From an uncultured Chromatiales bacterium (GTDB lineage Bacteria > Pseudomonadota > Gammaproteobacteria > SZUA-140), in the NCBI GenBank assembly GCA_964384095.1, contig CAYLKC010000002.1, positions 1 through 53,728 of the forward strand: 53,728 bases of DNA. The letters are read 5' to 3'. The notes beneath the pieces were generated by a model, which was not told the DNA's origin, made no database searches, and was given only the letters and a program-made list of their open reading frames with translations. The position numbers were made by a program, and so were the translations under genes. Positions 5,494 through 41,062 of this stretch are shown in pieces (the stretch's first letter is position 1; each line of letters opens with the position of its first letter).

Positions 5494-5547
5494 TTCGCAC
5501 AACGCGCGGAGACAGCGAACCGCGCATCGACGTCGCAGCAGTGGTAA

Positions 5548-5654
5548 GCAGGGTCTGGACGGCCTGTGTTCAGGACACGCGTAAATACGTCCCTGTAGCT
5601 CTCGGCCGCATCCCTGCGGCCGAAGGTCCTGAACACAGGCCGTCCAGACCCTGC
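5548..5654 (+). repeat. hairpin element A: 29-bp perfect arms plus a 49-nt REP-like loop (GTAG + GGCCGC-ATCCCT-GCGGCC)
   Basis: Arm 5548-5576 is the exact reverse complement of arm 5626-5654. The loop is homologous to the loops at 5710-5758 and 40935-40987. Confidence 0.9.
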
Positions 5655-5680
5655 CGCGAGCGCGTGCCACAGCCGCAGGT

Positions 5681-5787
5681 CGCCACGTCCCGCCTTCCGT
5701 TGCCATGACCTTCCGCCGCAGGGATGCGGCGGGGAGCTACATGGATGTATTAACGCGAGTCATGGCAACGGAAGGCGGGACGCGGCG
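5681..5787 (-). repeat. hairpin element B: 29-bp arms (1 mismatch) plus a 49-nt REP-like loop, inverted relative to A
   Basis: Arms 5681-5709 and 5759-5787 pair at 28/29 positions (24 contiguous). The reverse complement of the loop matches loop A at 42/49 positions by hand count. Confidence 0.9.
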
Positions 5788-5853
5788 GCCGGGAATATGG
5801 CAGAACGCTTTATGCGGACAGCAGTCGATGCGGTCCTCTGCGCACAGGGCGTC

Positions 5854-38631: not shown

Positions 38632-38810
38632 TGCATTATTCATGATCCGCACGGACTTTCAGCAGGGCCTTGGCGGGTTTTGTCTTTTCAGGAGCCTGCG
38701 AGACAGGATGTCTCGCCGGCAGCCCCCAGGGATGGGTTCATGGCGGTCCTGAAAAGACAAAACCCGCCAAGGCCCGGATCCCTCGAATACCCGAGTTTAT
38801 GAATAATGCA
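38632..38810. repeat. hairpin element D: inner 29-bp perfect arms (38665-38693 / 38747-38775) plus a 53-nt loop, nested inside an AT-rich 12-bp outer inverted repeat
   Basis: gggccttggcgggttttgtcttttcagga and its exact reverse complement form the inner arms. The outer pair is tgcattattcat / atgaataatgca. The element fills the folK / SDR convergent spacer. Confidence 0.85.
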
Positions 38811-40839: not shown

Positions 40840-40860
40840 GGAGATCGGGTGACAGCGCCG

Positions 40861-41060
40861 GATCAAAGGGGCCGGAGTCGTTTGATCCATTGAGCACAGT
40901 GGCTTAAGCCGGTGGTTCCTCTTCGTTACGGGACACGCTGTTAATACATCCATGTACGCTCACCGGCCGCATCCCTGCGGCCGGAAGGTCCCGTAACGAA
41001 GAGGAACCACCGGCTTCGGATAGATCCTGCAGGAATCAAACGACTCCGACCCCTTTGATC
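40861..41060 (+). repeat. hairpin element C: inner 29-bp perfect arms (40906-40934 / 40988-41016) plus a 53-nt REP-like loop, nested in a 26-bp outer inverted repeat (1 mismatch)
   Basis: aagccggtggttcctcttcgttacgggac and its exact reverse complement form the inner arms. The loop acgctgttaatacatccatgtacgctcaccggccgcatccctgcggccggaag is homologous to loops A and B. The outer pair is 40861-40886 / 41035-41060. Confidence 0.9.
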
Positions 41061-41062
41061 CC

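Follow-up and report, generated by a model that had tools for sequence, protein, structure and literature searches.

The window, as we call the whole stretch of 53,728 nucleotides that was analysed from contig CAYLKC010000002.1 of an uncultured Chromatiales bacterium, contains four hairpin elements (A, B, C and D), each about 107-111 bp long with 29-bp arms and a conserved interior of 49-53 nt. Its three locations with hairpins are all spacers of convergent housekeeping genes according to Pfam assignments, and the copies stand 41-67 nt from the stop codons of these genes (58-70 nt for the pair A/B by model-hit coordinates; Table 1). The elements are very probably shorter, near-perfect and fast-evolving members of the known YPAL (RU-2) family of repeats, which is partly captured by the Rfam family Ysr224. 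Sequence, structure and strand evidence further suggests that this class of repeat carries an RNA module with two binding sites for the protein CsrA/RsmA, a proposal for which we see about even chances.

Four hairpins and the architecture of their interior

A and B, their arm pairing and the single mismatch in B were recovered as an earlier, sequence-only reading of this DNA had described them, and the pairing of B reaches 32 nt (5678-5709 / 5759-5790, 94%, with two non-Watson-Crick positions). Their interiors are reverse complements across 61 nt (85%, 6 bp of each arm included) and differ in the mini-stem by a compensatory G>C and C>G swap (GGCCGC/GCGGCC in A, CGCCGC/GCGGCG in B), both as had been noted before. 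The long arms of the two elements are as dissimilar as had been claimed, with an identity of 0.26 over the 23 nt compared, and the same design does recur, with perfect 29-nt arms, in C and D. Element D belongs to a diverged subfamily and has a paralogue in one of the collected loci (L019, 2561-2671).

A covariance model (R1) built from relatives found outside the window recognises exactly four sites in it (E = 1e-17 to 1e-23) and otherwise nothing below E = 0.1, weaker reverse-strand matches at the same four sites excepted. The individual scores are 96 bits for A (E = 1.4e-21, minus strand), 86.9 bits for B (E = 2.4e-19, plus strand), 102 bits for C (E = 4e-23) and 76.5 bits for D (E = 9e-17), although D was not part of the training set. 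Folding z-scores of the elements range from -11 to -14 relative to shuffled sequence.

The interior of 49 nt had been regarded as a loop. It is instead composed of two hairpins, P2 and P3, and conserved single-stranded segments, which together with the long arms form a three-way junction. In an alignment of 83 sequences (A1) the arms (P1, about 26-33 bp) are always closed by GAC/GUC. P2 is an 11-bp hairpin whose third position is a conserved U·U (A·A on the complementary strand) and whose middle covaries freely; a linker of 4 nt, AGCC or AGCG, leads to P3, a hairpin of 3-4 bp followed by an invariant 10-nt tail, UUCAC(N)GCGU. Pairing is found in 96.8% of the cells of A1, against 61% after column shuffles and 36-44% when the partners are slid by one to three columns, and 32 of the 39 base pairs are changed on both sides. 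The pairing of P1 was partly selected for in choosing the sequences, that of P2 was not. P3 is invariant in A1; more distant copies found with the model have UAC/GUA, CCC/GGG, CAC/GUG, UCC/GGA or GCAC/GUGC at this place around a constant loop. The stems P1 and P2 vary freely in sequence without losing their pairing, and the apical loops of P2 and P3 keep the form CA-N-GGA-Y-G. In the following, the strand that carries these loops is called the GGA strand and its complement the GTAG strand.

Two further observations concern this interior. As DNA, the invariant tail (window 5577-5584, columns 75-83 of A1) is a palindrome, CACG(N)CGTG, and shares positions with the closing pairs of P1; CsrA binding does not explain it, and it could be a candidate site for a protein that binds at the DNA level. 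Insertions in P2 that add hairpins with GGA loops occur in L069 (1092-1247), L044 (2715-2869), L071 (1174-1323), L053 (12668-12810) and L125. In the last, a model-found copy at 1275-1400 with an interior of 74 nt, the insertion is a tandem array of the GGA-loop motif (GGCCATCCAT on the GTAG strand).

Table 1. Hairpin elements of the window, their parts and the gene spacers in which they stand (positions in the window)
Feature	Position	GGA strand	Description
Element A	5548..5654	minus	arms 5548-5576 / 5626-5654, 29 nt, 100% complementary
Core of A	5577-5625 (49 nt)		P2 mini-hairpin 5599-5625; P3 (TAC/GTA) 5586-5597
Segment in P3 of A	5587-5596	(-)	ACAGGGACGT
A-B spacer	5655..5677		about 26 nt between the 29-nt arms, 23 nt to the extended arm of B; contains CGCGAGCGCG and TGCCACAG
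Element B	5678..5790	plus	29-nt arms 5681-5709 / 5759-5787; one A/C mismatch, 5685/5783
Core of B	5710-5758		P2 ~5710-5736 with GGA 5722-5724; P3 loop ACATGGATGT 5739-5748
Element D	38665..38775	plus	perfect 29-nt arms, 53-nt core; diverged subfamily
Hairpins of D			P2, GCGAGAC-AGGAU-GUCUCGC; P3, CCC-AGGGAU-GGG, hence without GTAG
Element C	40906..41016	minus	perfect 29-nt arms, 53-nt core
Outer inverted repeat around C	40860..41061		arms 40860-40886 / 41035-41061, 27 nt, 96%; internal-loop segments of about 18 nt per side
Gene spacer of A/B			acyltransferase gene / 16S rRNA dimethylase RsmA/KsgA gene
Gene spacer of D			HPPK gene / short-chain dehydrogenase gene; D 41 nt past the HPPK stop
Gene spacer of C			methyltransferase gene / lipoyl synthase gene; C 47 nt from the lipoyl-synthase stop

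Arms, copy turnover and the probable folding strand

The elements are widespread. A scan with part of the core, one genome per species, returned 26 loci, nearly all in Chromatiales metagenome-assembled genomes (MAGs), and a metagenome scan with another part of the core at least 120 loci. Across the collected Chromatiales MAGs and varied metagenomes, R1 finds about 190 copies in sequences with a GC content of 0.37-0.76, and the similarity is therefore not confined to the window. The core pattern proposed for such a search by the sequence-only reading (GTAGCTC-N2-...) was one base out of register and has no matches. Genomes can hold many copies: the 54 kb analysed here contain four, and the MAG JBJHCZ has at least 14 exact-pattern matches.

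The arm length of 29 bp had been taken as fixed. Among 107 non-redundant intact copies, with isolated mismatches allowed, it ranges from 20 to 35 bp (mean 28.5, standard deviation 3.1, median 29), and so wide a spread makes 29 bp the modal value of an inherited architecture, not a measured length. The interior varies between 49 and 54 nt and is exactly 52 nt long in 72 of these copies. The claim of perfect arms stands for 32 copies, which are free of mismatches; 41 have one mismatch, and two to five are present in the remainder. Whole copies with near-perfect arms of 26-33 bp measure 104-113 bp, and some carry an additional outer inverted repeat that brings the total to about 200 bp. The nested layout seen at C is also present in L007 (6153-6364), and D likewise appears, by eye only, to lie inside an outer inverted repeat (38634-38644, gcattattcat / 38800-38810, atgaataatgc).

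A conserved interior combined with copy-specific but paired arms was the central claim of the sequence-only reading, and it holds for the window/JBJHCZ lineage, where 5' arms of different copies are 0.38 identical and the single-stranded core 0.82. As a rule for the family the uniqueness of the arms fails, since in the MAG JALSSV they are 0.69 identical with both ends in common (GCCCTCAWGG...GTTKCGTGAC). Within a subfamily both arm ends are generally shared and only the middle 10-12 bp varies, e.g., GCCCTCAAGG-(variable)-GTTTCGTGAC; a weak family-wide consensus, GG..GG.....C.UU.CG.GAC, extends along the whole arm. The 16-mers from arm middles match only other copies within the approximately 1 Mb of the window and the sampled loci, which gives no sign of a guide function, and a guide-like role of the variable middles was rejected on this ground. 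Directly outside the arm, on the 5' side of the GTAG strand, many copies share the motif CAGTGGYW (L007, L012, L016, L019, L022, L025, and in the window 5538-5547, cAGTGGTAA, and 40895-40905, cAGTGGCTT); B-type copies have its complement, TGCCACAG, on the other side. The repeated unit thus exceeds the 29-bp arms.

Comparison of related copies provides insight into how the arms change. D and its paralogue in L019, both perfect palindromes, differ at 7 of 29 arm positions, all of them compensated and five of them transversions, whereas their 53-nt cores differ at 2 positions only. Between B and its L002 orthologue 3 of the 32 arm positions have changed, again all with compensation, and the flanking genes there are 82-86% identical. 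In the orthologous trio L047, L074 and L111 the single-stranded core is intact and the arms and P2 have diverged yet remain paired, in flanking intergenic DNA that is almost unalignable. Change in the arms proceeds roughly at the neutral rate of the surrounding DNA. Frequent transversions, which have no wobble intermediate, and the small number of unresolved mismatches fit arm-to-arm copying better than slow compensatory selection alone. Template switching within quasi-palindromes is an established mechanism for such copying; here the stem would drift, with changes copied from one arm to the other by intra-palindrome template switching or conversion, and selection for hairpin stability on the GGA strand would add to this. 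For the question of how long palindromes can drift in sequence and yet remain perfect, the family is a clean natural test case.

Turnover also affects whole copies, as a comparison of the plsC-rsmA spacer in relatives, suggested by the sequence-only reading, shows. Element A is complete in the window and in L018, where A, the spacer and a decayed B are 95% identical to the window; it is absent without trace from L015, the orthologue of L018 in another MAG, which has a single element; and in L002, from the same MAG as L018, it is replaced by a perfect 18-bp palindrome, GCAGGGTCCGGACCCTGC. Copies are therefore gained and lost, with compensated turnover in the arms, and their coming and going between related genomes would mean that the family is or was mobile. 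Direct repeats indicative of target-site duplication are not evident at the arm ends; the A site of L002 is compatible with an 8-bp palindromic duplication. In L002 the whole intergenic block between the acyltransferase gene and ksgA, with B present, is inverted relative to the window (window 5500-5840 compared with L002 6900-7260). The outermost sequence there is a 22-nt inverted repeat, GAGCGCAGCGAGCTGCATTGAC / GTCGATGCAACTCGCTGCGCTC, with only a weak counterpart in the window around GCATCGAC / GTCGATGC, and this repeat could mediate the flip of the block.

Adjacent copies obey a strict geometry. In 23 pairs at most 400 bp apart the GGA strands have their 5' ends turned towards each other, whereas the opposite inverted arrangement occurs twice and the direct one three times, all at one locus (p = 2e-5). 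Examples are A/B (window 5551-5784) and pairs in L006, L012, L018, L020, L078, L097 and L144. The arrangement is unchanged by reverse-complementing the region and holds in convergent, tandem and divergent gene contexts; arms of pair partners are mostly unrelated, the spacers between them are dissimilar (32-345 bp), and about 74% of the copies are singletons. The rule may be due to a doublet unit, to insertion in a set orientation on either side of a target, or to an RNA-level constraint.

The mismatches in the arms distinguish the two strands. With related copies collapsed, the GGA strand has 59 G·U against 11 A·C mismatches (p = 4e-9) and 44 purine-purine against 6 pyrimidine-pyrimidine mismatches (p = 3e-8); read on the GTAG strand, the same positions are 59 A·C against 11 G·T and 44 pyrimidine-pyrimidine against 6 purine-purine. 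The GGA strand thus has G·U, G·A and G·G, the mismatches that destabilise a hairpin least, whether of RNA or of DNA. We interpret this pattern as an indication that the element is constrained to fold in single-stranded form and that the folding strand is likely the complement of the GTAG strand, i.e., the GGA strand. Strand-specific mutation pressure is excluded as its cause because the orientation of the copies is unbiased relative to local GC skew (34 vs 43) and shows little or no bias relative to neighbouring genes.

YPAL affinity and the predicted CsrA sites

The sequence-only reading missed two points: the core of the elements is the already described core of YPAL, and the other strand carries two GGA loops of CsrA type. 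Aligned with RU-2/YPAL of Y. pestis, a hidden Markov model of the family matches over the whole core (RU-2 positions 65-117, 38 bits, E = 1e-13), and RU-2 folds into the same junction as the window family, on a longer and imperfect stem. The 168-nt RU-2 repeat of Y. pestis, published by Delihas (PMC2759123), and the YPAL of De Gregorio et al. 2006 are one element, and YPAL has been classed as a miniature inverted-repeat element (PMC3733652, PMC2267715). Rfam has no match in the window at its gathering thresholds. At an E-value threshold it returns generic miRNA-hairpin models, Ysr224 (RF02770, "Yersinia sRNA 224") and one weak TwoAYGGAY match only. Ysr224 matches L067 (47 bits, E = 1e-8) and about ten other copies below threshold, and the window copies with 14-16 bits, short of the gathering threshold of 70; its consensus contains the family core, and the model spans the left arm and core of the Yersinia form.

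Shared with YPAL are the 53-nt core, composed of P2 with its GGA loop, the AGCC linker, UAC-AUGGAU-GUA and the tail UUUACGGCGU, as well as the long hairpin, the intergenic position near gene ends, the many copies per genome and a presence that varies among relatives. De Gregorio et al. reportedly observed in 2006 that YPALs stand just past stop codons, coincide in many cases with terminator-like hairpins and increase the amount of the upstream transcript. In other respects the two forms are distinct. YPAL measures 167-168 bp with imperfect long arms, whereas the copies described here have 104-113 bp and near-perfect arms, some with the extra outer inverted repeat; the stem is closed by GAC/GUC here and by AAAG/CUUU in YPAL. 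The arms of the window lineage are almost unrelated between copies, whereas those of typical miniature inverted-repeat transposable elements are conserved, and the hosts are Chromatiales and varied environmental bacteria instead of yersiniae.

On the GGA strand, P3 reads C-UACA-N-GGA-Y-GUA and the apex of P2 CA-(G/U)-GGA-UG. The CsrA consensus obtained by systematic evolution of ligands by exponential enrichment (SELEX) is RUACARGGAUGU, with ACA and GGA invariant and GGA preferentially in a hairpin loop (PMC4347634), and CsrA sites are usually paired, one per face of the dimer (PMC4383904). Of 129 copies, 116 have the motif ACA.GGA.GU at P3 (116-128 by overall loop match) and 110 have CA.GGA.G at P2 (110-116 by overall loop match). 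This conservation is not built into the collection, since for either loop one of the two scans imposed no constraint. At least two GGA occur in 127 of the 129 copies, and the distance from the first to the last is 21-24 nt in 112 of these 127. A spacing of about 10-63 nt is reported to suit one CsrA dimer (Mercante et al. 2009), and the copies here fall within this range. Binding of CsrA by the GGA loops is accordingly a prediction from motif and fold, and we consider the odds on it close to balanced.

Known CsrA ligands offer both likenesses and differences. As in CsrB and RsmY/Z, GGA stands in the apical loops of short hairpins, in paired arrangement and in agreement with the SELEX consensus; unlike the Csr/Rsm RNAs, which are dedicated small RNA genes with their own promoter, the elements are a dispersed repeat with tens to hundreds of copies and two sites per unit. 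TwoAYGGAY RNA (RF01731), predicted by others to be a two-site CsrA binder (PMC4333381), likewise presents two A-N-GGA-Y loops on a closing stem, with copies that are sometimes adjacent. Membership in that family is unsupported by the Rfam score, 23.8 bits in one copy only against a threshold of 43, but the weak match fits the CsrA picture, given what is predicted for that RNA. Literature that links CsrA with YPAL or with bacterial miniature repeats was not found in the searchable library.

A mechanism can be outlined on this basis. The GGA strand would be transcribed, mostly within neighbouring transcripts, and the two loops of P2 and P3, resembling canonical high-affinity CsrA/RsmA sites at a spacing that suits one dimer, would bind a CsrA dimer, while the long stem would present and protect the module. 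Each copy might tether CsrA to the mRNA in which it lies, or hundreds of copies together might titrate CsrA. In its full form, in which YPAL-class repeats are mobile modules that bind a CsrA/RsmA dimer with high affinity, present in tens to hundreds of copies per chromosome as a distributed, genome-encoded sponge for this global post-transcriptional regulator or as its tethers in 3' or 5' untranslated regions, with 29-bp stems kept perfect by arm-to-arm conversion and with a strict doublet geometry, we put the proposal forward only tentatively.

Several observations weigh against the CsrA proposal and have to be considered. The orientation of the copies relative to genes shows a weak bias at most, less than a cis-acting mRNA element should have: among model-based hits between tandem genes, 26 have the GGA strand in sense and 13 in antisense orientation (18 and 15 in an earlier set), and near the 3' ends of genes the two orientations number 26 and 25. 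A scan found no promoter consensus beside the window copies, and Ysr224, the sole transcript on record, is modelled on the GTAG strand. The strand signal is no proof of RNA: in single-stranded DNA, too, no mismatches are more stable than G·T, G·A and G·G. Binding of CsrA would not require the AGCC linker, the GAC/GUC closing pairs or the tail UUCAC(N)GCGU, all of which are invariant, and the conservation of the core could instead reflect recognition by some transposase. A csrA gene was not found among the sampled loci, which is uninformative.

If the GGA loops do bind CsrA, the YPAL repeats, described in 2006 and treated as "junk", would gain a concrete molecular function, and the Csr/Rsm network would acquire a layer of binding sites, dispersed and able to evolve, in hosts that range from Yersinia to environmental sulfur bacteria. 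Without such binding, the elements would simply be new, shorter representatives of an already known family of miniature insertion sequences.

Alternative explanations and further observations

The alternative that survives best, although we regard it as rather unlikely, is that of a purely selfish miniature element of YPAL type, in which core and paired arms serve the needs of a transposase, possibly as a hairpin that the GGA strand forms in single-stranded DNA, and the likeness to CsrA sites is without function. Many features described above would be expected of such an element: the number of copies per genome, their gain and loss at orthologous sites, the nesting of copies in one another, the weak orientation bias, invariant core segments other than the GGA loops, an adjacent-copy geometry independent of gene context, and G-containing mismatches that are the most stable in DNA hairpins too. 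A transposase, however, is not among the genes enriched near the copies in 147 sources, where no gene family is enriched and the best one occurs beside copies in 16, and target-site duplications were not seen. The core that stays intact in orthologues amid almost unalignable flanks suggests selection in place, and two loops resembling the 12-nt SELEX consensus, on covarying stems and at the right spacing, are unlikely to have arisen by chance.

GTAG followed by a short hairpin had suggested to the sequence-only reading a repetitive extragenic palindromic (REP) element recognised by a RAYT, a tyrosine transposase of IS200/IS605 type, and the doublet A+B could then be the mobile unit, as in REPINs. 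Most copies do have GTAG beside a hairpin, in A, B and C directly ahead (5') of the P2 stem of 10-11 bp; of 25 inverted pairs, 23 carry it in the distal position, like a REPIN doublet, and the copies resemble REPs as intergenic palindromic repeats that are enriched between convergent genes (27 copies in convergent against 12 in divergent intergenic regions, an over-representation) and form inverted doublets of preferred geometry. As a hallmark of REPs the GTAG fails nevertheless, because it is the complement of C-UAC in P3 and disappears where P3 changes to CCC/GGG, CAC/GUG or UCC/GGA, as in D. The mismatch asymmetry marks the opposite strand as the one that folds, and tblastn with E. coli RayT has no match in the window and 146 loci (about 1 Mb). 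The elements, with 104-113 bp and a three-way junction, are three to five times larger than REPs of 20-40 bp, about three quarters of them are singletons, and the relation of a REPIN is reversed in that the interior is conserved and the stem variable. We consider this explanation improbable.

Equally improbable is the insertion of a short mobile core into the apex of existing hairpins or palindromes, which would make the arms target-derived, or its variant, a measured inverted duplication around the core. The A site of L002 appears favourable to it: the palindrome GCAGGGTCCGGACCCTGC is identical to the outermost 8-9 bp of A's arms and would fit a central insertion as well as a palindromic duplication of 8 bp. 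Hairpins nested in hairpins do occur, and YPAL targets were, reportedly in De Gregorio et al. 2006, found to overlap terminator-like hairpins. The state of L002 is, however, equally explained by deletion between GTC repeats. The weak consensus along the whole arm, and arm ends that are conserved distally and proximally within a subfamily around a variable middle, are unexpected for target-derived sequence, and a length of 20-35 bp does not suggest that arms are measured out.

A generic structure without a specific protein partner, be it a bidirectional terminator, as the sequence-only reading had proposed, or a stabiliser of mRNA 3' ends, may coexist with CsrA binding, and the position of all four window copies near the stops of convergent genes, the preference for convergent spacers and the great stability of the hairpins (about -52 kcal/mol, folded as single-stranded DNA) agree with it, stabilisation of 3' ends being reported for YPAL and REP; as the whole explanation it is very doubtful, as the window copies lack an intrinsic-terminator signature (no terminator at A and B, only two sites partly inside an arm at D, no U-tract after the stems), and a plain hairpin could do without both the roughly 26 invariant nucleotides in single strands and the pair of conserved GGA loops on stems that covary.

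Some observations on individual sequences remain. The family is present in 5 of 5426 E. coli genomes, with one copy each. One of these (L148, plasmid NZ_CP058751.1, 34779-34837) lies just downstream of a gene for an iron-containing alcohol dehydrogenase in a segment flanked by IS26 and ISKpn26, and was thus probably imported with foreign DNA; the plasmid copy gives no clue to a partner gene. A 6.5-kb contig binned as Rhodobacteraceae (L001) has arms of the same subfamily as the Chromatiales MAG JALSSV, and as both apparently stem from the same study, judging from isolate naming, the contig may be mis-binned. A perfect palindrome with 41-bp arms and a 3-nt loop but without the family core at L002 4-88 may represent another hairpin family or an "empty" hairpin. 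In L087, positions 2006-2106 match the Rfam t44 RNA above threshold (73 bits), which is unrelated to the hairpin repeats.

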